Part shown: positions 3,662 through 25,860 of the stretch, piece by piece | Numbering within the stretch: the stretch's first letter is position 1 | How the letters are laid out: every line of letters begins with the position of its first letter | NCBI GenBank assembly: GCA_046758845.1 | Contig: JBHIBA010000003.1 | Span: 1-55,418, forward strand | DNA length: 55,418 nucleotides | Reading direction: 5' to 3' | Source: Nitrospinota bacterium | GTDB lineage: Bacteria; UBA8248; JACPRG01; G963555815 | The notes under the pieces: generated by a model | Database searches by the model: none | What the model was told of the DNA's origin: nothing | The model's input: the letters and a program-made list of their open reading frames with translations, nothing else | Position numbers and translations under genes: made by a program

Positions 3662-3763
3662 CTAACCAGTCCACCCGAGTGAACCGGATTCGTCAAAACT
3701 TTCCTTCGTCCGCTCAGTGACCTCACCGTTAAGCGTGAATTTGACCGTGTGCTCCTTCTTCAA
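3662..3763 (-). pseudogene. truncated N-terminus of a (2Fe-2S) small subunit
   Basis: My translation from TTG 3763 (GGAG upstream): MKKEHTVKFTLNGEVTERTKESFDESGSLGWTG*. The first ~17 aa resemble CoxS/XdhC N-termini (compare TITVRINGK in 5232..5705). No cysteine motifs remain. Confidence 0.45.
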
Positions 3764-3880
3764 TCCACTCTCCAATCGTACTTACGCTTCCCGGCTTGGG
3801 CCTGGTTGAGCATCCCCTTTTTTAAATTGCAAATGAGACGATAACACGAAATGAGATCCGGGATCACGAATTGACCGCCT

Positions 3881-5230: not shown

Positions 5231-5231
5231 C

Positions 5232-5705
5232 TCACCCTCCTGCTTTCACGACGGCCGAAACCGCGTCAATGATCCCCGTGTATCCCGTGCAGCGGCAAAG
5301 ATTTCCCGAAATCGCCCCGCGGATCTCTTCCCGAGTCGGCCGAGGGTTGTCTCTCAAGAATTCCGTCAACGTCATGAGAAATCCCGGCGTGCAGAACCCG
5401 CATTGCAGCCCGTGGTGCTCCTGAAAGGATCTTTGAAGGGGATTCATGGACTCCGGCGTTCCGAGGCTTTCGACCGTCTGGACCTCCTGGCGCTCCGCCT
5501 GAACGGCGAACATCAGGCAGGAGCGTACGCCCCGCCCGCCCACGAGGACCGTACACGCGCCGCAGACGCCGTGTTCGCAGCCCACATGCGTCCCCGTGAG
5601 ACTCGCGTCCTCCCGAATGAAGTCGCACAGCAGCTTCCGCGTGGGGACGGCCGCCGTGTAATCCTTTCCGTTGATCCGGACGGTGATCGTCCTTTGCCGG
5701 GTCAT
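5232..5705 (-). CDS. Mo-hydroxylase (2Fe-2S) subunit, CoxS/CutS family
   Basis: GCEHGVCGACTV...SC, QCGFCTPG, GNLCRCTGY. Confidence 0.95.
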   Translation of the reverse strand: MTRQRTITVRINGKDYTAAVPTRKLLCDFIREDASLTGTHVGCEHGVCGACTVLVGGRGVRSCLMFAVQAERQEVQTVESLGTPESMNPLQRSFQEHHGLQCGFCTPGFLMTLTEFLRDNPRPTREEIRGAISGNLCRCTGYTGIIDAVSAVVKAGG

Positions 5706-6580
5706 TTCACGTTCGCTCCCGCATTCCGGAACGCCTCGGTGAGGGCCGACCGCGTCAGTTCCTCAACCAGGTCGCGGCGGAAGTCCGCCGAGGCGTGGAT
5801 GTCATCGTCCGGCTCGGCCTGTTCCCGCGCCAGCCTGGACGCCTCGCCGACGAGATGCGCCGAGGGCTTTCGCCCCATCAGGCAATCACACGCTTGCCGG
5901 GCCTTGATCGCCGCCGGCCCGACGCCCATCAGGGCCACACCAGCGTGCGTGCAAACGCCGTCCGCCAACGTCACGAGCGCCGCCGATCCCGCAATGGCAA
6001 AGTCGCCGCTGCGGCGCGCGAATTCCCGGAGGGCAAAACCCGAGCCGGGCGGGTGGATCGGAATCCGGAATCCGGAGAGCAGGTCGGTCGGCTCAAGGAG
6101 CGTCGTGAGGTAGGTGACGAAGAAATCCTCAGCCGCCTCTTCGCGGACTTCGCCCGCCGGGTTTCGGATCAGAACTTTTGCGTCGAGGGCGATAAGGGCC
6201 GCGGGGACCTCGCCCGCCGGGTCGTTGTGGGCGGCTCCCCCTCCGATGGTGCTCCGGTTTCGGATCTGGGCGTGGCCGATGCAGGAAGAGGCCAGCGCCA
6301 GCAATCCACATTTTTCCCGGACCAGCGGGGACTCCTCAAGGTCCCGGTCGCGGGTCATGGCCCCGATCTCCAGCCATTCCTCCCGCTGCCGGATGTGGGT
6401 CAACTCCTCCACCCGGTTCAGGTCGATCAGCGCAGCCGGCCGGACGAGCCGAAAGTTCATAAGGGGGATCAGGCTCTGGCCGCCCGCCAGGAGTTTCCCT
6501 CCCTCCCCGTGCTCGCGCAGGAGGTCCATCGTTTCCTCAACGGTCCGGGGATCGAAGTAATCGAAGGCGACCGGTTTCAT
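5702..6580 (-). CDS. Mo-hydroxylase FAD-binding subunit, CoxM/CutM family
   Basis: LAGGQSL, QIRNRSTIGG, HNDPAGE, RRSGDFA, DDIHASADFR; 4-bp overlaps with both neighbours. Confidence 0.95.
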   Translation of the reverse strand: MKPVAFDYFDPRTVEETMDLLREHGEGGKLLAGGQSLIPLMNFRLVRPAALIDLNRVEELTHIRQREEWLEIGAMTRDRDLEESPLVREKCGLLALASSCIGHAQIRNRSTIGGGAAHNDPAGEVPAALIALDAKVLIRNPAGEVREEAAEDFFVTYLTTLLEPTDLLSGFRIPIHPPGSGFALREFARRSGDFAIAGSAALVTLADGVCTHAGVALMGVGPAAIKARQACDCLMGRKPSAHLVGEASRLAREQAEPDDDIHASADFRRDLVEELTRSALTEAFRNAGANVK

Positions 6581-8925
6581 GGACTCTCCCTCCGCCTTCG
6601 TTGGAGGAGTTTGTGGAGCGCCCTCGGGCTGAGGGGGATCGAGTCGATCTCCACACCGAACTCAGACAGCGCATCCTCCACAGCTTGGGCGATGACGGTG
6701 GGCACCGGGATCGTTCCCCCCTCGCCGCAGCCCTTGACCCCGAGCGGGTTATTCGGCGAGGGGGTGGTGACGTGGTGGATTTCGGCTTCGGGAACCTCCG
6801 CGGCCGTGGGAACGCAGTAGTCCATCAGGCTCGCGGTCAGCAGCGCTCCGCTGTGCTCATCGTGCACGAGTTTTTCGTAGAAAGCGCCGCCGATTCCCTG
6901 GGCCAATCCCCCCCGCACCTGGCCTTCCACGATCATGGGGTTGATCATCTTTCCGCAATCGTGGACGACGACGTATTTCAGCACGCGAATGTCGCACAGG
7001 GCAGGATTGACCTCGACGATCGCAGCGTGCGTCCCGCTGGAGAAGGAGGCTGTCCGGGGAACGTGGAACTCCGTCGCCTCGAGGCCGGGCACGAAGTGGG
7101 AGGGGAGATTTCCGCGCAGCGGATTCGCCAGACGGGCCATCTCCGAAAAGGTGAGGCTCCTGGAAGGCGCGCCTTTGACGAATACCTTCCCATCCTTGAA
7201 CTCGAGGTTTTCGGCGCCGACCTCCAGGGCCTCAGACGCCAGCTTCCCCATCGTCTCCCGGACCTTCAGGGCCGCGTTGTGGATCGCTGTGCCCGCGACG
7301 ACGGCCGTTCTGGAGGCGTAGTTGCCGACCCCCCAGTGGAACTTGTCGGTGTCGCCGGTCGCAACGCGGATGCGCTTCGGGTCGATGCCGAGAACCTCTG
7401 CGGCGATCTGGGCGAAGGTGGTTTCGGCCCCTTGGCCAGTGGCACCGCTCCCGGTCCCCACGAAGACGTCTCCGGTGGGTTCCACGTAGACCTTGGCGCC
7501 TTCGTACGGGCCTATGCCGGTCCCCTCTACGTAATTGGCGATTCCGATCCCGACGTAGCGTCCCTCTTTCCGGTAGGAGGCCTTGCCCGATTTGCGGAAC
7601 GACTCGTAGCCGATTTTCTCCGCGGCGGTGCGCTGACAGGCGGGGTAATTCCCGCTGTCGTAGATGACGTCCGACGTGTCCTGATAGATCATCTGAACGT
7701 CCCAGGGGAACTCGTCCGGCTGGATCAGGTTCTTGGCCCGCAATTCCAGCGGGTCCATGTCGAGGGCCCTTGTGGCCGCGTCGAAGAGCCGCTCCATGAC
7801 GAAGACGGCCTGGGGGCGTCCCGCGCCCCGGTAAGGGGTCACGGTGATCCGGTTCGTGTAGACCGCCCGCAGGCGGGACCGATAGTTACGAAGGCGGTAA
7901 GGCCCGGGCAGGGTCGTGGACGTCACGATGCCCACGATCAGCCCGTAGGGGACGTAAGCCCCCGCATCCAGGAGGAATTCGTCCTTGACGCCGAGGAGAG
8001 TCCCGTCCTTCGCGAAGGCGATCTCGGCGTCGTGAACCTGGACCCGCTCCTGTGTGCTCGCGAGGAAGTGTTCCCGCCGGTCTTCGATCCACCTGAGGGG
8101 GCAACCCAGGCGAATCGAGCAGTAAGGAATGAGGATCTCTTCGGGGTAGAAGATAATCGCCTTGGGGCCGAAGCCGCCGCCCACGTCCGGCGCGATCAGG
8201 CGGACGTCGTGTTCGGGCAAACCGAGAATTTGGGCCAGCCCGGCCCGGAGGGGGACCGGCGCCTGCGTGGAATCGTAAACGGTGAGCTTGCCGTCCCTCG
8301 CGTCCCACTGGGCCAGGACCCCTCGCCCCTCCATCGCAATGGACGCCCCGCGGTCAATCACGAAGCGCTTTCGGATGACCACATCGGCTTCGGCGAAGGC
8401 CTTATCGGGATCGCCGACGGTTTGGACGAAGTCGGCTGCAACGTTGGTTCCCGTCCCCTCGTGGACAAGGGGGCCGCCCGCTGCCGCCGCCTCGACGTCC
8501 GTCACCGGGGGCAGGGGTTCGTAGTCAACCCGGATGAGTTCGAGAGCATCCTCCGCGGTGTAGCGATCCGCGGCGACCACGACGGCGACCGGCTCTCCTT
8601 CGTAGCGGGTCTTGCCGGCGGCCAGCGGGGAAGGGGTCTTGGGGTCCTTCAAGGAAGGGTGGGGGACCAGAAGGGGGAGCGGGCCGGCCAGATCGCCGAG
8701 GTCGCCGGCCGCCAACACCAGTCGGACGCCGTCGAGAGATCGGGCGGCCTGCGTCTCGATAGAGCGAATTCGTGCGTGGACGTGTGGACTTCGCAGGATA
8801 GCCGCGTGTAGACAGCCGGGCGGCTGGTAGTCGTCCACGTACCGTCCAGTGCCCGTAAGAAGGCGGGAATCTTCAAACCGAGGCTGGCTTTCCCCGAAAT
8901 AGCCCCTCGTCGTTGGACCCGTCAT
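6577..8925 (-). CDS. Mo-hydroxylase large subunit, CoxL-like (form II type, not a form I CO dehydrogenase)
   Basis: VGGGFGPK, active-site loop PYRGAGR (form I CODH has AYXCSFR), GQG, HDCGKMINP, KGCGEGG. Confidence 0.93.
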   Translation of the reverse strand: MTGPTTRGYFGESQPRFEDSRLLTGTGRYVDDYQPPGCLHAAILRSPHVHARIRSIETQAARSLDGVRLVLAAGDLGDLAGPLPLLVPHPSLKDPKTPSPLAAGKTRYEGEPVAVVVAADRYTAEDALELIRVDYEPLPPVTDVEAAAAGGPLVHEGTGTNVAADFVQTVGDPDKAFAEADVVIRKRFVIDRGASIAMEGRGVLAQWDARDGKLTVYDSTQAPVPLRAGLAQILGLPEHDVRLIAPDVGGGFGPKAIIFYPEEILIPYCSIRLGCPLRWIEDRREHFLASTQERVQVHDAEIAFAKDGTLLGVKDEFLLDAGAYVPYGLIVGIVTSTTLPGPYRLRNYRSRLRAVYTNRITVTPYRGAGRPQAVFVMERLFDAATRALDMDPLELRAKNLIQPDEFPWDVQMIYQDTSDVIYDSGNYPACQRTAAEKIGYESFRKSGKASYRKEGRYVGIGIANYVEGTGIGPYEGAKVYVEPTGDVFVGTGSGATGQGAETTFAQIAAEVLGIDPKRIRVATGDTDKFHWGVGNYASRTAVVAGTAIHNAALKVRETMGKLASEALEVGAENLEFKDGKVFVKGAPSRSLTFSEMARLANPLRGNLPSHFVPGLEATEFHVPRTASFSSGTHAAIVEVNPALCDIRVLKYVVVHDCGKMINPMIVEGQVRGGLAQGIGGAFYEKLVHDEHSGALLTASLMDYCVPTAAEVPEAEIHHVTTPSPNNPLGVKGCGEGGTIPVPTVIAQAVEDALSEFGVEIDSIPLSPRALHKLLQRRRRESP

Positions 8926-9461: not shown

Positions 9462-9680
9462 TCACCGCCGCCCCCGCCGCCTTTCCTGCATCGCTTTCGC
9501 GCGGGCCGAGAGCGCGGCGGCCTCCTCCCTCTTTCCGAGCTTCACGTAGAGCCCCGCTAGGTTGTTCAGGGTCTTGACGATGTTCGGGTGGTCTGGCCCT
9601 AGGGCTTTCTCTCTGATGGCCAGGGAGCGTTGCACCAAGGGAATCGCCTCCGCATACTGGTTGTTCTGGCCTCCGGTCAA
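9462..9680 (-). pseudogene. TPR protein fragment (kinesin light chain-like TPR)
   Basis: YAEAIPLVQRSLAIREKALGPDHPNIVKTLNNLAGLY is a typical TPR_10/12 unit; only ~1.5 repeats remain and there is no convincing start. Confidence 0.75.
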
Positions 9681-9761
9681 AACCCTGCCTTCATACCGAT
9701 CGCAAGCTGCGCTCTCGTCTTACACTCCTAGCGGTGAAAGTAGGAAGGAAACTGGGAGAAA

Positions 9762-11483
9762 TCAATCGGTCGAAGGGTTTGCCCCAGACAGGTGCGTGGT
9801 TGACGGTGGGGTTTGGGAATCCGCGCGTGTCCGTAATGTCCCGGCTTCGGTGAGTTGGAGCAGTTCGTGCAAGACGGCGCCTACGTCTTCGTTCACCGTC
9901 ACGTCGGCGTAGCGGTCATGGGCGGTGGGGGTGGCGTTGACGATGGCGATGGGGATGCCGGCGTCTCGGGCCCAAAGCAGCAGATCGGAGGCGGGGGCGA
10001 CTTCGAGCGAGGTGCCCAGGACGAGCAGGAGATCGGAGCTGAGGAGCGCCTGGACGGCCGCCTCAAGACGCTTTGGCTCCACCTCCTCGCCGAACATCAG
10101 GCCCCCTCCTTTCAGGAGCCCCTGACACCGGTCGCAATGAAGCGCCGCCGCCCCGTTGGTCATTCGGGTGGAGAGCGCCTCTCGGGAGACCTTCTGGCCG
10201 CAGTCCACGCACTGCGCTTCATGAATCGTGCCGTGCAGCTCGATCACCGCCTCGGTCGCAAGCCCGGCCGCCTGATGGAGGCCGTCCACGTTCTGCGTCA
10301 CCACGGCGGACAGGCGGCCCTGCCGATACAGAGCCGCGAGGGCCCGGTGGGTGATGGTCGGGCAGGCGCCCCGGAGCAGTCGGAAGAATTTCTCCTCCTC
10401 ACGCCAGTAGGCCTCCCGGACTTCGGGCGAAGTCAGGAATTTTTCGAAATTGATCTGACCGGTATCGGCCCAAAAGCCGGGCTGACCCCGGAAGTCCGGC
10501 AGACCGGCCGCCGTGCTCACCCCAGCGCCGGTCAGCACACAGATGCGCCGGGCCTTGCGGACCCGGTCGTGAAGGCGGCGGCGGGCAAGCCACTCCGCTC
10601 GCACCTCCTCGGGCCGCCCCACTCTGTTGAAAGGAAGGGGCGAGGGGCGCCCGGGTATCAGCCTACGGAATGCCGACAGATGCAAGGCGCCCAGGAGGCC
10701 TACAGTGACCAGGTTGAAAGGCGCAACGAGGAGGGGAGCCTCCGAGGGGCCGAGCACCGCAGAGGCCCCCCACCACAAAACCCCGGCGGCCGCCGCCCCG
10801 GAGGCAGCCACCCCGGCCGCTGGGCCCGACCACGGGAGGAACACCGCCGCCAACGCCATCGCCGTGGGCACGCTGTTGAACAGGAGGCCCGCCTCGATCC
10901 CCCCGCTCAGGAGAGCGCTCAGGCCGAGGCCGACCCCCGCGCCCACGAGCGCCGCGAGCGTTAAGAGCCTGGAGTGAACGGCCAGGCCGGCGAGGATCAG
11001 ACCCAGGCCCACAAGCTGGGTGGCATCGCCGACAGGATGGGTCGACTCGGCGGGTCCCAAAAAGGGCCAGGCGAGCCAGATGAGGCAGAGCGCAGGCAAT
11101 GCCAGCGTTGGAATCTCACGGGGCGTCAGGATGCGGTGCAACAGGTAGGTCAGCGGCGCCGAAGCGGCGGCCGCGGCGGCTAACGCGATCCCCGTTCCCA
11201 CCCCCGGAGAGAACAACACCCCCCAGAAAAGCCCGCAAAGGACCCCTGCGTAGCCGTAGAGGCCGGCTCGCCATGCCCCGGATGGATACCCCAGCGCCCG
11301 GGCCACCAGCGTGGCCACCCCCCCGCTCACGGCACCCGCCAAACCTACGGCGGGGACGATGAGGGTGAAGCCGAGAAAGAGCAACAGACCGCCGAGGGGA
11401 GATTCACAGAAGAGAACCTGGCCGTAACCCGACGCCCACGCTCGCCCAACCTCGAGGGCTCGCCGCAGCGCCCGCACGATCAC
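9762..11483 (-). CDS. urea-transporter-like membrane domain fused to a SIR2/CobB sirtuin domain
   Basis: N-half is hydrophobic with UT signatures (GYGQVLF..SPLGGLL, GLYGYAG, FNS, PLLVAPF). C-half has GAGVSTAAGLPDFRG, TQNVDGLH, ELHG, CVDC...CDRC, FGE, GTSL. One uninterrupted ORF. Confidence 0.88.
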   Translation of the reverse strand: MIVRALRRALEVGRAWASGYGQVLFCESPLGGLLLFLGFTLIVPAVGLAGAVSGGVATLVARALGYPSGAWRAGLYGYAGVLCGLFWGVLFSPGVGTGIALAAAAAASAPLTYLLHRILTPREIPTLALPALCLIWLAWPFLGPAESTHPVGDATQLVGLGLILAGLAVHSRLLTLAALVGAGVGLGLSALLSGGIEAGLLFNSVPTAMALAAVFLPWSGPAAGVAASGAAAAGVLWWGASAVLGPSEAPLLVAPFNLVTVGLLGALHLSAFRRLIPGRPSPLPFNRVGRPEEVRAEWLARRRLHDRVRKARRICVLTGAGVSTAAGLPDFRGQPGFWADTGQINFEKFLTSPEVREAYWREEEKFFRLLRGACPTITHRALAALYRQGRLSAVVTQNVDGLHQAAGLATEAVIELHGTIHEAQCVDCGQKVSREALSTRMTNGAAALHCDRCQGLLKGGGLMFGEEVEPKRLEAAVQALLSSDLLLVLGTSLEVAPASDLLLWARDAGIPIAIVNATPTAHDRYADVTVNEDVGAVLHELLQLTEAGTLRTRADSQTPPSTTHLSGANPSTD

Positions 11484-12889
11484 CGCCCTTTCGCAACCGC
11501 CCGCCGAGTGGGCGCGGGAAGCCGGTCGCGGCCCACGAAGTCCTCCACCCCCTCACTCTCGCGGACGACTTCCGCCCCTCCCTCTGAGACCCAAACCGCG
11601 GGCGGTCGCGGCTGGATGAACTGGATGGACTGGGAGTTTGTGTAAGCGCCGCAGTTCTTCACCGCCAGATGGCTGCCGCGGTGCAGCGGCGGCAAAAGGA
11701 GCCCCGCCCCCACACAGTCCACCTGCATGCAAAGGGGGCCGAAGAGGGTGACCTCCTCCACAGAGAGCGGGCTGGGCTCGGTGGGCGCGATGTCCAGGGC
11801 GCTGTAGTACGCGGTGGGAAGCAGGTTGACGCCCGCGTCCAGGATCGCCGCCTTGGCTCCGCACGGAAGACGCTTCACGGCCGTCACACTCGTCAGCAGG
11901 AACACCGCGTGCTCGACCACCGCCCGTCCCGGCTCCAGGAGGAGGCGGGGGCGACTGCGGAGGCGGCGGAGAGCGGAAGTGAGGGGACGGACAATGGCCT
12001 GTGCAAAAGAGGGGAACACTTCCTCCACATCGACGCCGGGGCGCAAGGCCGCGTAGCGGTGACGGTTCGGAAAACCCCCGCCCAGGTCCAGCACCTGCCA
12101 GCGGACGCGGTGGCGCCGCTCCAGCCTGTCCATCAAAGGAAGCAGGAGCTTCAGCAGGTCCCGGAAGACCCCGGGGTCGGGAAGGTCCGTGCCGAGATGG
12201 ACGTGCAGCGCCCCCAGCCGAACGGAGCGGGAGGCGATCAGGCGCCGGCACGCCTCCTCCGCCAGCCCCGCCTCCAGGCTGAAGCCGAACTTGCCCCAAG
12301 GGGCGCTCGTCACCGCAGCGGTCACGCGGATGCCCACCGTGGGGACCTTCCCCTCCTCGCACGCAACTTCCTCCAGCAGGGAAAGCTCATCGAAGTTGTC
12401 CAAGTTAATCAGGGCCCCGTCGTGAACTGCGCGGCGCAGGTCCTCCTGGGACTTGCCGGGTCCGTTGAAGATAACCCGGCTCCCCGGCACGCCCAGGCGC
12501 CGGGCCATCTCGTACTCGAGGCCGGAGACCACCTCGGCCCACGCCCCCTCCTCATGAAGGAGGGCGCGGACGGCAGAAAGATAATTCGTCTTGTACGAGT
12601 ACGCCACGTCCGTTTTGGGGTAGAGCGCCCGGAAGGCCCGGCGGAAATCCCGAAACTCCTGCCGCAGGCGCGCCTCCGAGACCACGAAGAGGGGGGAGCC
12701 GAATTGATGAATCAGCGCCCCCACCTCGCACCCATCAATCTGTTCCACCACCGCAGTCGGTACCAGAGGGGCCCGGGTGTTGAGGCCGACGCGAGGATGC
12801 TTGCTCACCTGCCCAAAGGCTTGGCGGGTGAGGGCCATCGGTTCGTACGGCCGGCGGCCCCGACCGTTAGAGGAGAGGTTACGTGACAT
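11480..12889 (-). CDS. fold-type III PLP-dependent decarboxylase (diaminopimelate/ornithine decarboxylase family)
   Basis: YSYKTN (PLP Lys), FNGPGK, KFG, HVHLGT, LDLGGGF, EPGR, GPLCMQVD, GAY. Confidence 0.9.
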   Translation of the reverse strand: MSRNLSSNGRGRRPYEPMALTRQAFGQVSKHPRVGLNTRAPLVPTAVVEQIDGCEVGALIHQFGSPLFVVSEARLRQEFRDFRRAFRALYPKTDVAYSYKTNYLSAVRALLHEEGAWAEVVSGLEYEMARRLGVPGSRVIFNGPGKSQEDLRRAVHDGALINLDNFDELSLLEEVACEEGKVPTVGIRVTAAVTSAPWGKFGFSLEAGLAEEACRRLIASRSVRLGALHVHLGTDLPDPGVFRDLLKLLLPLMDRLERRHRVRWQVLDLGGGFPNRHRYAALRPGVDVEEVFPSFAQAIVRPLTSALRRLRSRPRLLLEPGRAVVEHAVFLLTSVTAVKRLPCGAKAAILDAGVNLLPTAYYSALDIAPTEPSPLSVEEVTLFGPLCMQVDCVGAGLLLPPLHRGSHLAVKNCGAYTNSQSIQFIQPRPPAVWVSEGGAEVVRESEGVEDFVGRDRLPAPTRRAVAKGR

Positions 12890-15017
12890 CGCCGTTCACC
12901 TTCCCGTTCACTGCGAGTTCTCCCATCCGCTCCACAGGCGCGGTGGCGTCCCACGCCATGCGGACGTAGAAGGTCCCCCGGCGGGGGGTGAGCGGGGAAA
13001 CCCGCTCGCCCCGCGCCAGCCGGACCGCCGCCCAGGGGAGGTTGGCCCCCGCCCCCGCCGACAGGTAAACCCAGCTGGGAAAGCGCGGGTTGACCTCGAT
13101 CAGGAACAGGCCGCGCCGCGGATGGCGAATCACCTCCAGCTCGAAAGGCCCCACCCATTTCAGCGCCTTGGTGAACCGCTCCGCCAGCGCGCGGAATTCC
13201 CGGCCCGCCACCACCGTGCCCCCCCAGGTGTTGCCGTTGGGGGTGCGGATGTCCTTGCGCTGCGCCACCGACCCGACGATCCGGTGGCGGCGGTCCGCGA
13301 CGGCGGCAATCCCGAACTCCTCTCCCTCGATGCGCTCCTGCGCGATGAGGGGAAAGCCCCATCTCTCGGCCAGGCGCCTCGCGATGACGCGCGCCTCCTC
13401 CTCGGTCCATACTGCCCGCGCATCGGCAGTGAGCCCTTTGAGGAAAAAGGGCGCGCCCAGTCTCTTTCCCGCCCGAGTCAGATCTTCGAACCCTCCGATG
13501 GTCTCCATCCGGGGAAGGGGGAACCCCTCGGCCGCTAGCTCTGGAAGACGCGGTTTCGTCGTGGCGCTCAGCGATCCTAGCGAGGGAATCAGGGTGGAAA
13601 CACCCGCGGCGGACAGGCGCGAAGCCAGCCGCGCTACGAGAGGCACCTCCACGTCCAGCGTGGGAATCAGGCAGTCCACGCCCGCCTCCCGGCACTGATC
13701 GATCAGGGCCTCCGGATAACCCCCCTCCTCCTGCGAGGGGAAGGGCAGAAGGCGCACCTCGTCCCAGATTCCGTCGACGTAGATGCCCGAGGAAAGGATT
13801 TCGTGGGTCAGGCCGATGAGCCGGGGCGGCGTCGAAACGGCCCGCAGGGCGCGGGCGACCGTGAGTCCCGGAGAGGGGTTGTCCGCCGCGTTCAGGCCGG
13901 TGATGGCCACCGTCCCCGGCTTCGGCGATCGGGGGGGGGGGCGCGAGCCGGTGCGAAGCGGTGGCGCGCCGTTTCCGGCCCGAGGGGGGCAGGGCCTCAC
14001 CTGTCCTTCCTTCAGGGTCTTCATGGGATTTTTGGCGAAGACCTGCTCCACGACCGCCCGCCCAAAAAACAGGCCGGGACTCGCCCGCAACTCCTCGACC
14101 CTCCCGCCCGTGGCGAGACGCACCAGCGCCGCGGGCAGGTTGGCCCCGGCTTCGGCCGCCAGCGCGATCCACGACGGGAAGCGGGGGTTGACCTCGATGC
14201 AGTAAGTGCTCCCGTCCGCCTGGCGGATGAACTCGATCTCTATCGCGCCCTCCCACCGCAGTGAACGAACGAGCCGTCGGGCTTTCTCGACGAGCTCCGG
14301 CTCCCCCACCGTCACCCCCGCCCAGGCAGTGCCCTTATTGGTCACCGAGAGCTTTTTCATCACAGCCACCCCCACCAACTCTCCGCGCCGGGCGACTGCC
14401 GCGACGTCGTATTCCTCGCCCGGGATCACCGGCTGGGAAAGAAGCGGGTACCCCCATTCAGCCGCCAGCTCCCCCGCCGCCACCCGAAAGTCCTCGGCCG
14501 AGTGGACCATAGCCGAATGTGCCAGAGCCGCCTTGAGCATCTGAGGATAGCGGAGCTTGATGGAGGCGCGATCCACGCTCTTGACCGACGGCAGCACCAG
14601 CGTCTCCGGGACCGCCGCACCCTCCCTGCGCCCCAGGGACGGAAGCCGCCGCTTCTCCCGGGCCCGAAGGGCGGAGGCCGTGGGCAGACACGTGGAGACG
14701 CCCAGTCGCCTCAGCTCCTTCTGGATGGCCACGTAGTGCGGCAGCTCGGCGTCGAGGGTGGGAATGACGACATGGAGGGGGTGCCGCCCCACGAAAGCGC
14801 GATACCAATCCAAAAGAGCCGGGCCCTCCCGACGGGGGATGAGCGCATGGGCGTCGATCAGATCGGTGGCGAAGGCCCCGGTCCCGAAGCGGTCGTCCGT
14901 GAGGGCGAGGACCCGCCACGAGGGCGACCCCCGCCGCAGGGCGCGGATGACGGCCAGCCCGGGATGAGGGTTGTCCGTGGCGTAAAAGCCGGTCACTCCG
15001 ATCCAGAGCTCACTCAT
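12879..15017 (-). CDS. tandem double ATP-grasp ligase
   Basis: Two homologous halves, each with TG...DNP.PGL, IPTLD.E, T.WxG and IEVNPRFPSW. Start placed at ATG 15017, overlapping the PqqD stop. Confidence 0.88.
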   Translation of the reverse strand: MSELWIGVTGFYATDNPHPGLAVIRALRRGSPSWRVLALTDDRFGTGAFATDLIDAHALIPRREGPALLDWYRAFVGRHPLHVVIPTLDAELPHYVAIQKELRRLGVSTCLPTASALRAREKRRLPSLGRREGAAVPETLVLPSVKSVDRASIKLRYPQMLKAALAHSAMVHSAEDFRVAAGELAAEWGYPLLSQPVIPGEEYDVAAVARRGELVGVAVMKKLSVTNKGTAWAGVTVGEPELVEKARRLVRSLRWEGAIEIEFIRQADGSTYCIEVNPRFPSWIALAAEAGANLPAALVRLATGGRVEELRASPGLFFGRAVVEQVFAKNPMKTLKEGQVRPCPPRAGNGAPPLRTGSRPPPRSPKPGTVAITGLNAADNPSPGLTVARALRAVSTPPRLIGLTHEILSSGIYVDGIWDEVRLLPFPSQEEGGYPEALIDQCREAGVDCLIPTLDVEVPLVARLASRLSAAGVSTLIPSLGSLSATTKPRLPELAAEGFPLPRMETIGGFEDLTRAGKRLGAPFFLKGLTADARAVWTEEEARVIARRLAERWGFPLIAQERIEGEEFGIAAVADRRHRIVGSVAQRKDIRTPNGNTWGGTVVAGREFRALAERFTKALKWVGPFELEVIRHPRRGLFLIEVNPRFPSWVYLSAGAGANLPWAAVRLARGERVSPLTPRRGTFYVRMAWDATAPVERMGELAVNGKVNGDVT

Positions 15018-15297
15018 CGACCTCTGCCAGACCTTCCTCGACCAGCTGTGCCGTGAAGCGGGCAAAATCCCGGCGGGCGGTCGGGGCGTCGACGTCAAAC
15101 GCTTTGACGACGGCCGCGATCACCTTCGGCAGCAACGCGCCCTCCTGGATACAGGACGCCGCGACGGCGCCGCTTGCGTTCAGCGAATAGACCTTCCCCG
15201 TCCGCTGGTCGAACAGAAAGCCGCGCTCCGCCCCGACGCGCACCTGGACGGAGGAGGCGAAGCGGATGTTTTTGGGGATTCGAGGGACGGAGCTCAC
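15010..15297 (-). CDS. PqqD family protein / RiPP recognition element (95 aa)
   Basis: C-terminal part of the listed ORF 15010..16113. GTG 15297 overlaps the TPR gene stop (GTGA). GFLFDQRTGKVYSLNASG and FDVDAPTARRDFARFTAQLVEEGL fit the PqqD pattern. Confidence 0.88.
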   Translation of the reverse strand: MSSVPRIPKNIRFASSVQVRVGAERGFLFDQRTGKVYSLNASGAVAASCIQEGALLPKVIAAVVKAFDVDAPTARRDFARFTAQLVEEGLAEVDE

Positions 15298-16664
15298 TGG
15301 ACCCGCTTTCCCAGCGCCTTGAGACCATTCAAGGCGTCCGCGTAACCGGACCTCGCCTTCAGGCTGCGCCGGAAGGCATGCTCGGCTGCCGCCCGGTCGC
15401 CGAGCTTGAGCAAAGTCCACCCGAGACCACTCCAGGGGTCCGCCCACTCTGGGTAGCGCTTGGTGACCCGCCGGAATCCCCGAAGTGCGGGACGGAATTT
15501 TCCAGTGAAATAGTAGCTCCACGCGAGGCTTGAAGCCGCGTCGCTCATGATCGTGTGAAGCCCAAAGGCCCCCGGGATCTCGATCTGCTCTCGAATGGGG
15601 GGAAGCGCAGCGTTTGAGGCCAGGGCACGCTTCAGGGGGGGAATCGACTCCCGATACCGCTTGAGGGAATACAGGCTGTACCCCAACCCCCGCAGGCCGT
15701 CCGGGTCGTTCGGGTGACGCGCCAAAAGCGCCCGGAATTCCGCCTCGGCCTTGGCGAAAGCCCGCTGGTGGAACAGGGCCCAGCCGAGGTCCCGCCAGAG
15801 GTCGATCCACTCGGGGCGCCCGGCGAGGAGTTTTCGGAATTCGGGTTTTGCGACAAAGGCCGCCGATTTCTGCATGGCGGCGCGGAAGCCCGCTTTCGCC
15901 TCGGCCGGCCGCCCCTGCTTCTCGGCGATCCATGCGAGCCCCAGGGGCGGAGCGGCCCATGCGGGCTCGCGTCGGGCGACCTCCTGGAAGGTCCGGGACG
16001 CCTGGGCATGTTCCCCTTTGTAGTAATGGGCCCATCCCAGGGTTGAGCGGGCGAGTGAGTCTCTCTCGTCCCGCCGGAGGGCGTCGCGGAGCCGGTCGAT
16101 GGCCTCTTGCCAATCGCCGCGGCCGTACGCAACAAACCCCAGGCCCCGCGTCGCGTCCAGGTTGCCCGGGGCGCTCGCCAGGGCGGCCTTGAAGTTCGCG
16201 GCAGCCCGGATGAGGTCGCCTTTCCCGAGGTAACTCCAGCCGAGGCCGCTGTGGGCGTTGTGGTATCCCGGCTTGATCCTGAGGGATTCGGCGAATGCGG
16301 CCAGGGCGCGGTCGTAATGGTTGCCTTTATAGGCGATCCACCCCAGCCCCTCGTGGGCGTAGAAAGCGTTGGGATCGTTCGGGTCTATGCGGAGGGCGCG
16401 CTCGAACTCCTCCTTGGCCCGGATCAGGTCTCCCTTCTTGTAAAGGCTCCACCCGAGAAGGTTCCGGATACGGCCCGTGTCTTTTCCCCGGCGGATGGCC
16501 TCCTCGAGGCGGGCAATGGCCGTATCGTACTGCTGGCTCTCGAAGGCTTCGACGGCGAGAGAAAAGTCGTTCTCCGCTGCAATTTGCGCCGCCAAGGCGC
16601 ACCCACCGACAGCGGTGCCTAACACGAAGAGAACGGTTTGAATGACCAGCGGCCTGAGCTTCAT
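15294..16664 (-). CDS. exported multi-TPR protein
   Basis: N-terminal hydrophobic signal (possible lipobox VGGC) followed by about ten TPR units with a recurring LGW motif. Confidence 0.9.
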   Translation of the reverse strand: MKLRPLVIQTVLFVLGTAVGGCALAAQIAAENDFSLAVEAFESQQYDTAIARLEEAIRRGKDTGRIRNLLGWSLYKKGDLIRAKEEFERALRIDPNDPNAFYAHEGLGWIAYKGNHYDRALAAFAESLRIKPGYHNAHSGLGWSYLGKGDLIRAAANFKAALASAPGNLDATRGLGFVAYGRGDWQEAIDRLRDALRRDERDSLARSTLGWAHYYKGEHAQASRTFQEVARREPAWAAPPLGLAWIAEKQGRPAEAKAGFRAAMQKSAAFVAKPEFRKLLAGRPEWIDLWRDLGWALFHQRAFAKAEAEFRALLARHPNDPDGLRGLGYSLYSLKRYRESIPPLKRALASNAALPPIREQIEIPGAFGLHTIMSDAASSLAWSYYFTGKFRPALRGFRRVTKRYPEWADPWSGLGWTLLKLGDRAAAEHAFRRSLKARSGYADALNGLKALGKRVQ

Positions 16665-16774
16665 GGCGATCCTAACTTATCCCAACGCCCGTCGGCCACG
16701 CCTGATGTGGGGGCGCTTGGGCACTGAGGGGTTGTCTGAGAACATCCCGCATCGGACAGCCGCTAGGAAAGGGG

Positions 16775-16808
16775 AAAAAGGATGCCCTCATGCACCCTGA
16801 GGACATCC
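16775..16808 (-). terminator. rho-independent terminator/attenuator after the first operon gene
   Basis: Minus strand reads GGATGTCCTCA-gggtgca-TGAGGGCATCC-TTTTT: an 11-bp stem with one G-U pair, then a U run. Confidence 0.7.
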
Positions 16809-16841
16809 CCCCCCCTTACGGCCATTCACTCCTAAGCCGAT

Positions 16842-17243
16842 CTATCCCCGGCACTCGGTTGTCGCCATTGCCACGGTAGACCCATCTGTAGCAGCCTTTA
16901 CCTCGGCGAGGACTCTCTCTCCGCCGGCCGCAAAGTCGTCAGCGATGCTTGAATCGGCGTCGTCAGGGTCGGCGGTGCTGTCGAAGTCCAAATCCACGTC
17001 AGGCCTCAGAGCCGTGGCCTCGACGTCCTTCCCCGGCTCAGTCGCCGCCATTGCTGGCGTATCCAGATTCGTGACCTTCGCTGTGTAGAGACCCGGAGCC
17101 AGATCCCGTCCGTCGATTTGGACTCTGACTCGATCGTCCCTGACCCGACACCTGGCGCGCGCGCTCGCCGCCTGCGCCTCCAAGGACATGGCCAGGAACA
17201 CCCCCAAACAACACAGTATAGTCAAGACCCTCGATCCCTTCAT
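16842..17243 (-). CDS. small secreted hypothetical protein (133 aa)
   Basis: Strong RBS (GAGGAGGAG), signal peptide ending AQA, two Cys in the mature part (RARCRV, TTECRG). Confidence 0.8.
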   Translation of the reverse strand: MKGSRVLTILCCLGVFLAMSLEAQAASARARCRVRDDRVRVQIDGRDLAPGLYTAKVTNLDTPAMAATEPGKDVEATALRPDVDLDFDSTADPDDADSSIADDFAAGGERVLAEVKAATDGSTVAMATTECRG

Positions 17244-17305
17244 CCTTTTTCTCCTCCTCAGCTCTGATGTGATTTGACACCGTAACTTCTGTCTTCCCCA
17301 CTGTG

Positions 17306-17321
17306 TGCAATGCCGGTGCCA
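17306..17321 (-). promoter_or_regulatory. sigma54 (-24/-12) promoter
   Basis: Minus strand TGGCAC-CGGCA-TTGCA, an exact consensus ~60 bp upstream of the 17243 start; an NtrC-type activator is encoded divergently. Confidence 0.88.
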
Positions 17322-17593
17322 CTGCGGAGGAGGGGATTAAAAACCTGCTAATCCTTTATAACATAAGGGAAAATACTCACCACACGCCCTTCTGGACAAA
17401 GGTATCCCGCCCGGACAAGGGCTTTTGCCCACGGCCAAGGGCTCGATATGGGGATTTGCCCACCAAGCTTAGTATAGGATAAGTATAGGATGAATTTCTT
17501 GCGGTGCATTGACACGATCGAGATCTAAATTTTTGAGACGATTCACAATTCCGTTTTTGTGAGCCGCCGTGGGAACAAGGTGGAGAAAGTCCG

Positions 17594-19042
17594 ATGGGGC
17601 GCATCACAATCGGCAGGGCTTCTTTGACCCGCAAGTTCGCTCTTCTGAGCCTGGTCACGATTGGATTCATCACCGCGGTACAGGTGAGCGTCCAGTGGCT
17701 TCTGTTCCGTGAGGACCTCCTGGACAGGGAGCGCACGAGCACGGCCAGTATCATCCGCGCGGGGGCCTATGCGATGCTGCAGCCGGAGGACTTCTCGCGT
17801 TGGCGGAGCAAAGAGGCTCAGGAGCGATTCGAGCGCTTCTTCCGCCGTGCCTTGCTAAACCCTGAAATTCTCCGGGTGAAAGTGTTCGATACCCAGACGC
17901 GGGTCGTCTGGTCGGACGAACCCCCGCTCCTTGGCGCTCGCTTCTCCAAGAATGCCAGCCTGACACAGGCCCTTCAGGGCCAGACGGTCGCACGCCTGCA
18001 TACGGTGAAGAGATCTGAGAAACTCTACGAACAGAACTTTCGCAAGACCATAGAACTGTATATTCCGCTCGCGTTTTCCAGCGGCCAGACCCCTGGTATG
18101 GCCACCGTCGCAGGCGTGGTTGAGGTCTACAAGAGTCCGGCCCGGGTTCTGGCCGCCATCTCGCGTGGCCGGGTGATGATCATTTCCACCTCGTTGGCCG
18201 GCGCCGTCCTCCTCTATGCAACCCTTTTCGGCGTCGTCCACCGCGCCTCACGCCAGCTCCAGGCCCAGCGGGATGATCTTGAACGTCAGACGACGGCTCT
18301 CATCGCCGCCAACCGAGATTTGCAGACCACCCAACAACGACTCAGGACGGCAGAGCGGCTGGCTACCCTTGGAGAAGTCAGTGCCATGGTGGCCCATGGA
18401 ATCCGCAATCCGCTCGCCAATATCCGCGCCTCGGCCCAGGTGGCTCTCGGTTCGCCGAACCAGGCCAGCTCCATCGAGAGGTCTCTCCTCACGATCACGG
18501 GGGAGGTGGACCGGCTGGACCATTGGCTTCGGGCTTTGCTCGACGTCGTTCGCCCTCTGGAGCCCCGGCTGGCCCTGGTGGAGCTAAACGCTGTGATTGA
18601 AGACCTTCTTTCCCTCCTGGCTGAACGCTGCGCCGAGCGCCGGGTCCGCTTGGAGCGATATCTACTCCCCGACCCTCCGGCGATCATGGCCGACGAAGTC
18701 CAGTTGCAGCAGGCGCTCCTCGGGGTCTTGGAAAACGCGCTCGATGCGATGCCTCAGGACGGCACACTGACGGTCCGGACCGAACGCGCGGAGGCTGAAG
18801 GGCGCGCTGCCGTCCGGGTGGCGATCCGGGATACGGGGGAAGGGATCCCGACCGGACGACTCAAGCAGATCTTCGAACCCTTCTATTCTACCAAGAGCAA
18901 GGGAACGGGCCTCGGCCTCGCCATCACCCGGAAGGTGGTTGAGGCCCATGAGGGGCACATCGAGATCGAGAGCGAACCCGATGTGGGGACCACGGTCAAG
19001 ATCACGCTCCCGGTGGGGGATCCGTTGCAGGAGGCGGCATGA
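17594..19042 (+). CDS. membrane sensor histidine kinase
   Basis: Two TM helices around a periplasmic domain; H-box AHGIRNPL, ENALDA, DTGEGI, FEPFYSTK, GTGLGL. Confidence 0.93.
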   Translation: MGRITIGRASLTRKFALLSLVTIGFITAVQVSVQWLLFREDLLDRERTSTASIIRAGAYAMLQPEDFSRWRSKEAQERFERFFRRALLNPEILRVKVFDTQTRVVWSDEPPLLGARFSKNASLTQALQGQTVARLHTVKRSEKLYEQNFRKTIELYIPLAFSSGQTPGMATVAGVVEVYKSPARVLAAISRGRVMIISTSLAGAVLLYATLFGVVHRASRQLQAQRDDLERQTTALIAANRDLQTTQQRLRTAERLATLGEVSAMVAHGIRNPLANIRASAQVALGSPNQASSIERSLLTITGEVDRLDHWLRALLDVVRPLEPRLALVELNAVIEDLLSLLAERCAERRVRLERYLLPDPPAIMADEVQLQQALLGVLENALDAMPQDGTLTVRTERAEAEGRAAVRVAIRDTGEGIPTGRLKQIFEPFYSTKSKGTGLGLAITRKVVEAHEGHIEIESEPDVGTTVKITLPVGDPLQEAA

Positions 19043-20439
19043 TCCCGTCGGTTTTGATCGTCGAAGACGAGAAGATCCTGGCCGAGGCCATGGGAGAGTA
19101 CCTGGCCAGGCACAGCTACGAACCGGCGGTCGTCAGGACGGGGGAGGAGGGATTCCAGCGGATGCAGGAGTTGGAGATGGACCTGGTTGTCCTGGACTAC
19201 AAGCTCCCCGGCATGGATGGACTGGAGACCCTCCGTCAGATCAAGCAGATTGCTCCCGGCGCGGAGGTTATCGTGGTCACCGCCCACGGGACCGTGAAAA
19301 CCGCTGTGGAGGCCATGCGGACCGGCGCCTTCGACTATCTCACGAAGCCCGTGGACTTAGAGGAATTGGCCGTCGTCCTGGACAAGGCGTGGAAACATGC
19401 CCGCCTGCGGCGCGAGCTCCGCTACTGGCAGGACGCTGGCCGCCGCAGTGACCCTCGGGCCCGCATTGTCGGAGACTCTGAAGCAACCCGCCAGCTCCGG
19501 ACGCAGGTCGAGCGTCTGGCAGCGCTGGAGCCCGCGCCGGCCCTTCTGATCACAGGAGAGACTGGAACGGGCAAGGGGCTCATCGCCCGCACGATCCACG
19601 ACCTGAGTCCGCGCGCCGCCCGCCCGTTCGTTGAGATGAACTGCGCCGCCATCCCGGCTCAGCTCCTGGAGTCGGAGATCTTCGGGTATGAGCGAGGCGC
19701 CTTCACCGATGCCCGCACACCCAAGGCCGGCCTCTTCGAATCGGCCGACGGGGCTACGCTCTTTCTCGACGAGATTGCTGCGATGCCCATCGAGCTTCAG
19801 GTCAAGCTCTTGAAAGTCATTGAGGAGAAGTCGGTGCGCCGGCTGGGCGGGCTTCGCCCAAAGGTCGTGGATGTCCGGATCATTGCTGCTACAAACACCG
19901 ACTTGGAAGAGGCCGTGGGGAGTGGGAAGTTCCGGGCCGACCTTTTTTACCGACTCAAGGTCCTAACCATCGCTCTATCACCGCTTCGCGAGCACCCGGA
20001 GGACATCTTGCCTTTGGCGCGCCACTACCTGGCAGAGGCCGAGCGTCAGTACCAGCGGCCGAAATGCCTGCACCCGGACGCCGAGGCCCGGCTCCTCAGT
20101 TACCCGTGGCCTGGCAACATTCGGGAGCTGATTAACCTCTTCGAACGGGTTGTCCTCCTCCTGGAGGGTGAAGAGATCAGGAGCGAGGACCTTGGGCTCG
20201 GAGGGGTGGCCCGCCGCAGTGGGTCGGTCGAAATAGACAGCGGCGGCGTGCGGGTTGACCTTTCCCGGGGCAACGTGAGTTTGGCCCAGCTCGAACGGAC
20301 ATTGATCGCCGAGGCCCTCAAGATAGCCGGCGGCAATCGGCGCCGCGCCGCAGAGCTTCTCGATATCTCCCCGGAGACGCTACGCTACCGGGTTGAGAAG
20401 TACGGCCTTATGCCCGGCGGAGGCAAGGACCCCCGCTAG
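19039..20439 (+). CDS. NtrC-family sigma54-dependent response regulator
   Basis: Receiver domain (VEDE, LDYKLP), GETGTGK, GAFTDA loop, FLDEI, WPGNIREL, C-terminal Fis-type HTH. Confidence 0.95.
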   Translation: MIPSVLIVEDEKILAEAMGEYLARHSYEPAVVRTGEEGFQRMQELEMDLVVLDYKLPGMDGLETLRQIKQIAPGAEVIVVTAHGTVKTAVEAMRTGAFDYLTKPVDLEELAVVLDKAWKHARLRRELRYWQDAGRRSDPRARIVGDSEATRQLRTQVERLAALEPAPALLITGETGTGKGLIARTIHDLSPRAARPFVEMNCAAIPAQLLESEIFGYERGAFTDARTPKAGLFESADGATLFLDEIAAMPIELQVKLLKVIEEKSVRRLGGLRPKVVDVRIIAATNTDLEEAVGSGKFRADLFYRLKVLTIALSPLREHPEDILPLARHYLAEAERQYQRPKCLHPDAEARLLSYPWPGNIRELINLFERVVLLLEGEEIRSEDLGLGGVARRSGSVEIDSGGVRVDLSRGNVSLAQLERTLIAEALKIAGGNRRRAAELLDISPETLRYRVEKYGLMPGGGKDPR

Positions 20440-25844: not shown

Positions 25845-25860
25845 AAGAGGTCCTCGCGGG

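Follow-up and report, generated by a model that had tools for sequence, protein, structure and literature searches.

Decarboxylation of an amino acid that has already been joined to another molecule is a feature of several characterised biosynthetic pathways. FigC, SbnH, AcsE, MccE, BtrK, the diaminopimelate (DAP) decarboxylases and D-ornithine decarboxylase form one clade, within which FigC, SbnH, AcsE and BtrK act on amino acids that are already conjugated, according to the passages of PMC7857480 that deal with these enzymes. A locus in which a decarboxylase of this type is combined with a PqqD-type adaptor (a recognition element, RRE, for peptides that are made by ribosomes and modified after translation, RiPPs), a double ATP-grasp ligase and a fusion of a urea-transporter (UT) domain with a sirtuin (SIR2) domain has been analysed in a 55,418-nt stretch of DNA from a Nitrospinota bacterium (contig JBHIBA010000003.1, assembly GCA_046758845.1), called here the window at its full length. 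Six co-oriented genes (g1 to g6 in the order of transcription) occupy positions 9762-17321 of the minus strand behind an exact sigma54 promoter, an arrangement put forward in the original prediction and confirmed by the open reading frames (ORFs), the Pfam matches and the exact consensus match. The locus is the two-ligase/sirtuin form of a widespread uncharacterised cassette that would be switched on by a two-component system through a sigma54 promoter, and with a probability of roughly 0.45 it encodes a ligate-decarboxylate-ligate pathway that would be organised by PqqD and whose amide product would be cleaved at the membrane.

The butirosin proteins BtrI, BtrJ, BtrK and BtrG offer a close comparison. 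BtrJ and BtrG reportedly act in a side-chain pathway in which ligation takes place before and after decarboxylation and a final cleavage follows, an order resembling the one proposed here. In both cases an ATP-grasp ligase is combined with an enzyme of the DAP-decarboxylase family, which in butirosin works on a tethered glutamate (the BtrK reaction is described in PMC7857480). However, butirosin synthesis uses a phosphopantetheinyl carrier and a thioester, is encoded in an aminoglycoside cluster, and involves neither PqqD, nor a decarboxylase tail, nor a membrane UT protein, nor a sirtuin or M23 peptidase. In the siderophore pathways of FslC/FigC (with FslA), SbnH and AcsE, decarboxylation also comes after an ATP-dependent conjugation and a second ligation comes next (PMC7857480). 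The ligases of these citryl-siderophore systems are, however, NRPS-independent siderophore (NIS) synthetases instead of ATP-grasp enzymes, the systems are devoid of PqqD, UT, SIR2 and the tail, and the window lacks siderophore uptake genes. MccE of microcin C unites a DAP-decarboxylase-like domain with a RimL-type GNAT, and has its own substrate and a GNAT-based self-immunity. It belongs to the same decarboxylase clade (PMC7857480) and is paired with an acetyltransferase, and GNAT (Acetyltransf_3) genes are present in several cassette loci, although none adjoins the cassette in the window.

Lasso-peptide systems also combine an RRE with an ATP-dependent amide-forming enzyme and a peptidase, and the basic residue followed by Y/W-x-x-P in the decarboxylase tail described below resembles the YxxP and KPxWxxP sites of the B1 RRE given in the corresponding part of PMC12710340. 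Unlike in those systems, the motif stands here on a 469-aa enzyme and not on a free precursor, and reads YEPM in the window, the cassette is without lasso cyclase and B2 protease, and its PqqD protein reaches 45 of the 70 bits required. LysW is an amino-group carrier that operates with LysX and LysK. In this system, in the pearlins and in fosfazinomycin, where FzmZ is used by the ATP-grasp enzyme FzmF, synthesis of a small molecule proceeds on a protein or peptide to which it is held by an amide bond, ATP-grasp enzymes making the link and a hydrolase releasing the product (the FzmZ/FzmF scaffold-peptide comparison is taken from a section of the preprint PMC13622209). The carriers are there separate small proteins or peptides working through a C-terminal carboxylate, whereas the candidate tether here would be a lysine on the enzyme's own tail. 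M23 peptidase domains located C-terminally to UT in bacteria have been noted in the urea-transporter survey PMC12998343, and the same fusion dominates the common form of the cassette; unlike the present comparison, the survey text treats domain architecture only and leaves gene context aside. Its main text mentions neither Sir2, sirtuin nor ATP-grasp, and its supplementary tables may list UT-SIR2 proteins. No publication was found on the cassette, its two forms or the tail, the UT-M23 architecture in the text of PMC12998343 being the sole mention.

A pattern scan of contigs from one genome per species has yielded at least 587 relatives of the ligase, and the best 80 loci from other species were examined. 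PqqD was located directly upstream of the ligase in 77 of the 78 loci with enough flanking sequence, the decarboxylase directly downstream of it in 75 of 77 and the UT protein next in 64 of 66, so that the neighbourhood check on the ligase shows the recurring unit expected in the original prediction. Among 60 downstream proteins analysed with Pfam, UT was found in 58, M23 in 54 and SIR2 in 4. The cassette has two forms, one with a single ligase and a UT-M23 protein, and the other, that of the window, with two ligases, a UT-SIR2 protein and a large upstream TPR gene. Clusters of UT, decarboxylase, ATP-grasp and PqqD genes with M23 fused to UT had been mentioned in the original prediction; this form is real and the commoner one, because M23 is present in 54 of the 60 downstream proteins. 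The doubled ligase and SIR2 occurred together in all 8 loci in which both were visible, as well as in two loci from the window's phylum (L091 and L092) and in 8 metagenome relatives (59-74% identity). In L010 and L012 the two ligase modules are encoded by separate adjacent genes, and likewise UT and SIR2, so the fusions record functional partnerships. A quick IQ-TREE tree joined all single ligases into a single clade (98*) and kept the two modules of the doubled ligases, N and C, as old separate paralogues. In L029 and L061 ligase and PqqD are present with neither decarboxylase nor UT downstream, and Pfam gave nothing useful on the neighbouring genes. The cassette was found in phyla that include Myxococcota, Bacteroidota, Cloacimonadota, Ignavibacteriota, Pseudomonadota (including a Pelagibacteraceae genome) and the window's own phylum. 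A genome scan revealed no second cassette in the source genome, ligase, PqqD and UT being single-copy, and no component of either form reaches any curated NCBIfam cut-off. As adaptor, ligases, decarboxylase and membrane amide-cleaver always travel together, the cassette probably makes or edits an amide-linked compound.

Generic database names such as 'urea transporter', 'NAD-dependent deacetylase' and 'carbamoyl-phosphate synthase large subunit' would suggest housekeeping genes for lysine biosynthesis, urea transport and protein deacetylation that are merely adjacent. This explanation is regarded as refuted, since the genome has a true lysA gene at another place, none of the cut-offs for lysA, urea transporter and CobB is reached, and the gene order is kept across phyla together with fusions and translational coupling. 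The g5 protein matched PF02784 (105 bits) and PF00278 (40 bits), and its translation contains SYKTN, LGGGF, EPGR and GPLC, as expected for an alanine-racemase-fold decarboxylase dependent on pyridoxal phosphate (PLP). These four motifs presumably have in g5 the roles assigned to them in the family. Motif roles of alanine-racemase-fold decarboxylases are given in a part of PMC7857480. Against the lysA model TIGR01048, g5 scored about 215.7-215.9 bits, below the equivalog cut-off of 297.9, whereas a gene on another contig of the source genome scored 510.6; g5 was accordingly rejected as the genome's lysA, which would have been fatal to the original prediction. A third LysA-like paralogue of the source genome (contig C437:535-1740 of G000, L003; 207 bits) is also below the lysA cut-off and has no adjacent ligase. 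The closest solved relative of g5 was the N-citrylornithine decarboxylase 7kh2 (E 9.8e-48), followed by DAP decarboxylases, D-Orn/Lys decarboxylase and BtrK (2j66, 7ru7), and the FslC model gave 176 bits against a cut-off of 500. The original prediction had the amine made first and ligated afterwards; this order is probably reversed, because the nearest characterised decarboxylases, FslC/FigC, BtrK and SbnH, use amino acids that are already conjugated, as stated in the relevant part of PMC7857480.

An N-terminal tail was found in all 71 readable cassette decarboxylases and is absent from the true LysA of the genome. It consists of a basic residue, Y or W, P (or M) three places on and a hydrophobic residue at +5, usually with G at +11 and with an invariant K at +15 or +16; in g5 it reads R12-R13-P14-Y15-E16-P17-M18-A19-L20, with G26 and K30 further on. 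Each of 52 loci contains the strict form of the motif exactly one time, at this N-terminal place of the decarboxylase in every case, and the complete 5.1-Mb genome, translated in six frames, likewise has a single copy. The characterised recognition sequence of lasso-type RREs is YxxP; W/Y/L-x-x-P/L/I is reportedly bound by PqqD-type RREs, one extended site being KPxWxxP, according to the portions of PMC12710340 concerned with these domains. At the sequence level the g5 tail thus resembles the leader motif bound by PqqD-type domains, and from this YxxP-like tail, together with the lasso PqqD chaperones that are the best family matches of g3, we infer that PqqD would dock on the decarboxylase tail.

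The same resemblance could point to a classical RiPP pathway, in which a separate precursor, either encoded elsewhere or too short or variable to be noticed, would be bound by PqqD, modified by the ligases and the decarboxylase, and finally matured by M23 or SIR2. Almost every cassette has a PqqD gene and, in the part of PMC12710340 on the subject, all characterised PqqD/RRE domains bind peptides; nevertheless, no conserved precursor ORF was present among 874 small ORFs near the cassette in 81 loci, extra PqqD genes apart, and the leader-like motif is found just on the decarboxylase in each locus. The original statement that no precursor peptide is visible is therefore correct for a separate conserved small ORF, but has to be amended for the leader-like motif on the N-terminus of the decarboxylase. 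A search of 1.84 billion REPRESENTATIVES with the tail profile gave 166 matches at E<=0.001, 55 of them at E<=1e-10, and most of 30 fetched matches run on into decarboxylase sequence, so most of the short database entries with the motif are gene fragments, which also argues against a RiPP precursor. Five proteins of 33-60 aa (P0261, P0265, P0284, P0307 and P0317) start with the tail motif and then diverge; these may have arisen through assembly errors or frameshifts, or may be peptides in their own right, and would in the latter case favour the RiPP explanation. The cassette is also present in the Pelagibacteraceae single-cell genome L007, in our judgement an unusual host for a peptide antibiotic. 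Overall, a RiPP pathway with a separate precursor is considered decidedly unlikely.

The g3 protein matched PF05402 over residues 27-90 with 42 bits (cut-off 23.4; E 1.2e-10). Its best NCBIfam matches were lasso-peptide PqqD chaperones, all below their cut-offs (NF033530, 45.2 versus 70 bits; NF033536, 25.9 versus 80 bits), and no Asn-synthetase-like or transglutaminase-like gene that could serve as lasso cyclase or B2 protease was found in the operon; lasso-peptide biosynthesis of the B1/B2/C type was rejected on these grounds. PqqD as a LysW-like carrier loaded at its C-terminus was discarded as well, the PqqD C-termini not being conserved. The ligase g4 consists of an N module (about aa 1-335) and a C module (about aa 368-712), with PF15632 and PF02655 matching in two stretches, and both modules keep the invariant K, E, N and R columns common to their single-module relatives. 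The AF2 model matches ATP-grasp structures down to a Foldseek E of 2.1e-19, and the model of the N module (pLDDT 85) has 2pn1, an uncharacterised structure, as its nearest neighbour, ahead of the L-amino-acid ligases 3vot and 4wd3. Both modules are accordingly predicted to have the ATP-grasp fold and its nucleotide- and Mg-binding residues. A graspetide ligase of the microviridin type was rejected, with 17.4 bits for the RimK family against 143.4 and no precursor found. The predicted PqqD-ligase complex scored 0.48 with a best control of 0.01, which lends weak support to an interaction: calibration gave 58 passes among 80 solved complexes and 2 among 110 mismatched pairs, and the passes at scores of 0.60 or below comprise just 7 of those 80 solved complexes, and both mismatches. 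Between the complex runs, for which our own alignments were used, at least 97% of the contacts coincide, and the partner has a pLDDT of at least 77.

In g6 the UT domain comprises aa 1-290 (nt 10614-11483) and the SIR2 domain aa 291-573 (nt 9762-10613). The UT part falls short of the urea-transporter equivalog TIGR03441 (70.6 bits versus 274.6). Aligned to Sir2Tm (1yc5), the SIR2 part keeps the GAGxS, PDFRG and QNxDxLH motifs, the catalytic His and the four-Cys zinc motifs, the His corresponding to a position occupied by Tyr in the variant chain 2h4h. From its SIR2 profile, catalytic His, NAD-binding motifs and zinc site g6 is predicted to be a sirtuin, although the CobB-type deacetylase equivalogs are missed (NF001753, 208.7 versus 243 bits; NF040867, 200.8 versus 320). 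Both UT and SIR2 are present in 73 of the 94 g6 homologues listed. SIR2 and M23 share the same position in their fusions, after the last UT helix and followed by a K/R-rich stretch with no further hydrophobic segment; for this reason, and because SIR2 needs NAD+, both domains are probably cytoplasmic. The source genome has two further stand-alone sirtuins, so the SIR2 of g6 is an extra, dedicated copy. A SIR2 anti-phage defence system was also considered and rejected, the PADLOC models giving just two chance-level hits (E 4e-4 and 1e-3).

Several side observations concern the UT fusions and their neighbours. P0140 (702 aa) is a triple fusion of UT (7-288), SIR2 (318-496) and a GNAT acetyltransferase (583-669), and separate Acetyltransf_3 genes occur in the two-ligase loci L006, L007, L009, L028 and L091 and in several Bacteroidota single-ligase loci. 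An NAD synthase gene follows UT-SIR2 directly in L028 (15181-16092), and in L008 (15179-19002) UT-SIR2 is followed by a YHYH protein, a second SIR2 and an O-methyltransferase. The UT-M23 proteins of single-ligase loci contain, at residues ~480-715 (e.g. L013 12426-14573), a conserved domain of ~230 aa after M23 that has no Pfam family and is absent from the SIR2 form.

The sirtuin domain could also indicate reversible protein modification, in which the ligases would write an aminoacyl or amine mark on a target, the tail lysine of the decarboxylase itself or an envelope-related protein, and the membrane sirtuin would erase it to tune that target, without any exported product. The link to writing and erasing of acyl groups made in the original prediction is plausible, given the GNAT genes in several two-ligase loci and the single UT-SIR2-GNAT fusion. 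Protein marking would also agree with the invariant tail lysine, with the dedicated nature of the g6 sirtuin and with its intact catalytic motifs, sirtuins being N-epsilon-acyl-lysine deacylases. However, most lineages have as eraser an M23 peptidase with a further C-terminal domain, which is more like processing, regulation would not explain a dedicated decarboxylase, and the analysis points to no particular target; protein marking is thus judged unlikely.

The peptidoglycan endopeptidases MepM, ShyA and Pgp3 come nearest to the M23 domains found in the common form, all far below their cut-offs. This relationship, the LysA-like decarboxylase, the conserved secreted TPR proteins and the outer-membrane-like protein added in Bacteroidota loci (see below) might reflect editing of the envelope or of peptidoglycan precursors. 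The substrate of ligase and decarboxylase would then be a muropeptide precursor containing DAP or Lys, its omega-amino amide would be cleaved by M23 or SIR2, and the TPR lipoprotein would work on the periplasmic side; on chemical grounds, removal of the carboxylate from N-acyl-DAP would leave N-epsilon-acyl-lysine, the substrate type of sirtuins. Nevertheless, a cytoplasmic location is predicted for M23 and SIR2, the latter being dependent on NAD+, linked cell-wall genes such as Mur or Pbp are absent, and PqqD and the tail would be left unexplained. Envelope editing is therefore considered very unlikely.

The promoter TGGCACCGGCATTGCA matches TGGCAC-N5-TTGCW exactly and is located 62 nt before the ATG of g1. 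From the GG/GC spacing of its -24/-12 elements and the adjacent gene for a Sigma54_activat protein, a sigma54 operon with an enhancer-binding protein is predicted. A scan allowing at most one mismatch found 5 sites in the window against 1.02 expected, and none of 100 shuffles reached 5. The divergent pair of a sensor kinase (HK) and an NtrC-type activator, noted earlier alongside the operon, was confirmed by Pfam, and its orthologues (57-76% identity) keep the same divergent position in L095, L096, L097 and L099, the activator orthologue being counted only where the relatives' contigs reach so far. An equivalent sigma54 site was found ~95 nt before the TPR gene in L095, L096, L097 and L101, and the sigma54 consensus lies directly before PqqD in seven single-ligase loci (L014, L016, L038, L045, L047, L054 and L074). 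As HK/NtrC and the sigma54 sites are kept in relatives without g1, two-component sigma54 control belongs to the cassette, and the proposal of a signal-controlled operon stands, this control being conserved in close relatives and some distant ones. About 100-140 nt upstream of the promoter there are repeats of TGGGCAAWWNCCC; the window has only these 2 copies, against 0.06 expected, and none of 100 shuffles contained as many. In L095 and L096 the corresponding spacer between HK and TPR also carries the motif twice; apart from the window's own copy, the remaining loci lack it. These repeats are candidate binding sites of the NtrC-type activator, a suggestive assignment only, because the pattern was derived from those same sequences.

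With regard to sigma54 control in general, four one-mismatch sigma54-like sites lie at 21457, 25875, 27485 and 42422, and a second pair of sensor kinase and NtrC-type activator is encoded at 24231-27351 (+), the window holding several sigma54 regulons. In Bacteroidota loci (clusters 6 and 10; e.g. L030 2652-4568 and L076 7832-9618), two ORFs are found ~1-2.5 kb upstream of PqqD, one for a membrane protein of ~350-400 aa and the other of ~235-254 aa; the latter clusters by BLAST with the receiver part of NtrC and may belong to a different two-component system of that phylum.

The spacer of 177 nt between g1 and g2 contains a 12-bp GC-rich hairpin followed by U5, which sets g1 apart from the five coupled genes. 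An 86-nt spacer RNA has a folding energy of -37.5 kcal/mol (z -2.13), which is matched by 6 of 200 shuffles; the hairpin is missing from the output of the scan for consensus terminators. For g1 neither Pfam nor NCBIfam yielded a family, and its AF2 model (pLDDT 90) has a generic Ig-like sandwich fold with no PDB match at E<=0.001. Homologues of g1 form 10 clusters (45-65% identity), none of them in 50 other genomes of the phylum, and g1 is absent from 8 close relatives of the cassette, on which evidence it was rejected as substrate or conserved member. Consequently, g1 does not belong to the system as first proposed with six genes, and is a lineage-specific first gene or insert with its own hairpin outside the conserved cassette. 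At its position L093 and L099 have a 193-aa secreted ORF unrelated to g1 (no profile similarity for that of L099, hhalign probability 0.1). Unrelated small secreted proteins (133-193 aa) also appear as first gene before PqqD or TPR in L011 (9-410), L060 (9281-9721), L071 (9281-9742), L084 (3888-4367) and L099 (4317-4898). A relationship of g1 with the small secreted proteins heading some single-ligase loci was discarded (no profile similarity, hhalign probability 0.2), and no mutual sequence similarity was detected among the three kinds of these first-gene proteins. By comparison, g2 has orthologues with 60-68% identity at the same position in relatives, and TPR genes cluster with 56 of 81 loci, although TPR repeats make BLAST clustering of such proteins permissive. 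In Bacteroidota, L030 (10241-11404) and 12 other loci (cluster 7) encode after UT-M23 a 387-467-aa protein with signal peptide and beta-rich C-terminus, without Pfam or NCBIfam family, which may be an outer-membrane protein.

The proposed ligate-decarboxylate-ligate pathway takes as its starting point the gene content, coupling, promoter, conservation, two architectures, intact catalytic motifs, tail motif and separate lysA, all observed directly, and from here on we infer the chemistry. Its core parts would be the PqqD-type adaptor, the ATP-grasp ligase or ligases, the tailed LysA-like decarboxylase, the UT protein with its amide-cleaving C-terminal domain and the secreted TPR protein. PqqD would bind both the ligase and the decarboxylase, the latter at its YxxP-like tail, and so bring them into one complex. 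To judge by the enzyme families, one ATP-grasp module would then use the side chain of an amino acid to link it to an acceptor, so that the alpha-amino-acid end stays free. By homology with FslC, SbnH and BtrK, the decarboxylase would take off the alpha-carboxylate of the conjugated residue and so produce a new primary amine, which the second ATP-grasp module would acylate; in single-ligase cassettes one enzyme would act twice, like BtrJ and FslA. Finally, the membrane-anchored SIR2, or M23 elsewhere, would cleave the product amide beside the UT domain, which may pass a small neutral product or merely anchor the enzyme.

A more specific version of this pathway, in which the decarboxylase would be its own carrier protein, is considered doubtful. 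PqqD would grip the tail and present K30, the ligase would load an amino acid onto it through the side-chain carboxylate, decarboxylation would proceed in cis or across the dimer, and the second module would extend the tethered residue. At the mouth of the UT domain the SIR2 deacylase (an M23 isopeptidase elsewhere) would then strip off the acyl group and regenerate the carrier. Sirtuins remove acyl groups from lysine epsilon-amines, and in DAP or lysine the corresponding amine carries the amides that M23 DD-endopeptidases cleave; the interchangeability of SIR2 and M23 could be explained by this shared cleavage of amides on a lysine- or DAP-type amine.

Several points weigh against the pathway outlined above. 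The loci were fetched by ligase similarity and come from related lineages, so the counts measure association and are not independent trials. The prediction of the PqqD-ligase complex passes just weakly. In the window's clade the tail reads Y-E-P-M, with P at +2 and M at +3, and would fit W/Y/L-x-x-P/L/I only if Met replaces Leu/Ile; moreover, a four-residue motif is weak alone, and the tail might have a structural or regulatory part in the enzyme. The hairpin behind g1 could restrict how much transcription from the sole sigma54 promoter enters the cassette. Neither the secreted TPR protein nor the outer-membrane-like protein of Bacteroidota has a role in the proposed model. A sirtuin transfers the acyl group to ADP-ribose and does not set it free, which fits product release less well than a hydrolase would. 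Urea-transporter pores are narrow and the UT domain is far below the urea-transporter cut-off, so transport of the product by UT would be a guess.

The coordinates of the genes and other elements are collected in Table 1. The cassette proper, g2 to g6, consists of five tightly packed, tightly coupled genes. The overlaps described earlier for the last five genes measure 4 nt (g2/g3), 8 nt (g3/g4), 11 nt (g4/g5) and 4 nt (g5/g6); with the GTG start 6 nt downstream in g6, used in the 571-aa database copy, the last overlap becomes a gap of 2 nt. The ATG at 15017 was taken as the start of g4, as in the database copy and the homologues, and not the upstream TTG at 15098.

Table 1. Positions of the cassette genes, regulatory elements and adjoining regulators in the window.
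Feature	Position	Strand	Description
g1	16842-17243	-	133 aa, signal peptide; small secreted Ig-like beta-sandwich, two conserved Cys
g2	15294-16664	-	Secreted TPR-repeat protein, lipoprotein-like N-terminus; many Pfam TPR families
g3	15010-15297	-	PqqD/RRE-type adaptor, 95 aa; PF05402
g4	12879-15017	-	Double ATP-grasp amide ligase (predicted), 712 aa; PF15632 85.7 bits
g5	11480-12889	-	LysA-like alanine-racemase-fold PLP decarboxylase, 469 aa; PF02784 and PF00278
g5 N-terminal tail	12800-12856	-	Leader-like motif and invariant lysine
g6	9762-11483	-	UT PF03253 (113 bits, two stretches) and SIR2 PF02146 (141 bits)
sigma54 -24/-12 promoter	17306-17321	-	TGGCACCGGCATTGCA
Two enhancer-like repeats TGGGCAAWWNCCC	17419-17431, 17450-17462	-	Candidate NtrC-type activator sites
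Terminator-like hairpin and U5	16775-16809	-	g1-g2 spacer, 12-bp GC-rich stem
Sensor kinase HK	17594-19042	+	Pfam HisKA/HATPase_c
NtrC-type sigma54 activator	19039-20439	+	Pfam Response_reg/Sigma54_activat (E 6.2e-65)/HTH_8

The GC content at third codon positions (GC3) was 0.80-0.84 in the cassette genes and 0.77-0.82 in their neighbours, values so close that horizontal transfer is unsupported by composition. Just 3' of g6, at 9462-9719 (-), there are the C-terminal 85 codons of a TPR_10/TPR_12-type protein (Pfam E 2.8e-15) with no upstream part; this fragment looks like a gene remnant and might mark an old insertion boundary of the cassette. Further downstream, at 1192-8925 (-), two molybdopterin gene sets of the xanthine-dehydrogenase/CO-dehydrogenase type, comprising large subunits, FAD subunit, 2Fe-2S subunit and amidohydrolase, are not kept with the cassette in other loci.

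All the domain families concerned are known, and the system is considered new as a system, built from known parts and with a proposed kind of chemistry. The carrier version makes a testable prediction, a mass adduct on one named lysine, and experiments are feasible because the loci of the common form include some from culturable hosts (records of Chryseobacterium, Mucilaginibacter, Hymenobacter and Sorangium). If that version were true, a lysine-tethered, RRE-guided assembly line with a sirtuin as release enzyme would be a new kind of biosynthesis. If the more general pathway holds, the role of PqqD/RRE domains would extend beyond recognition of free peptides to docking on an enzyme's own tail, sirtuins and cytoplasmic M23 peptidases would have interchangeable biosynthetic roles, and a function would be available for the UT-M23 and UT-SIR2 fusions now named 'urea transporter' or 'deacetylase'. 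The cassette, present in hundreds of species from many phyla, would then represent an unrecognised route for making or editing an amide-linked compound.

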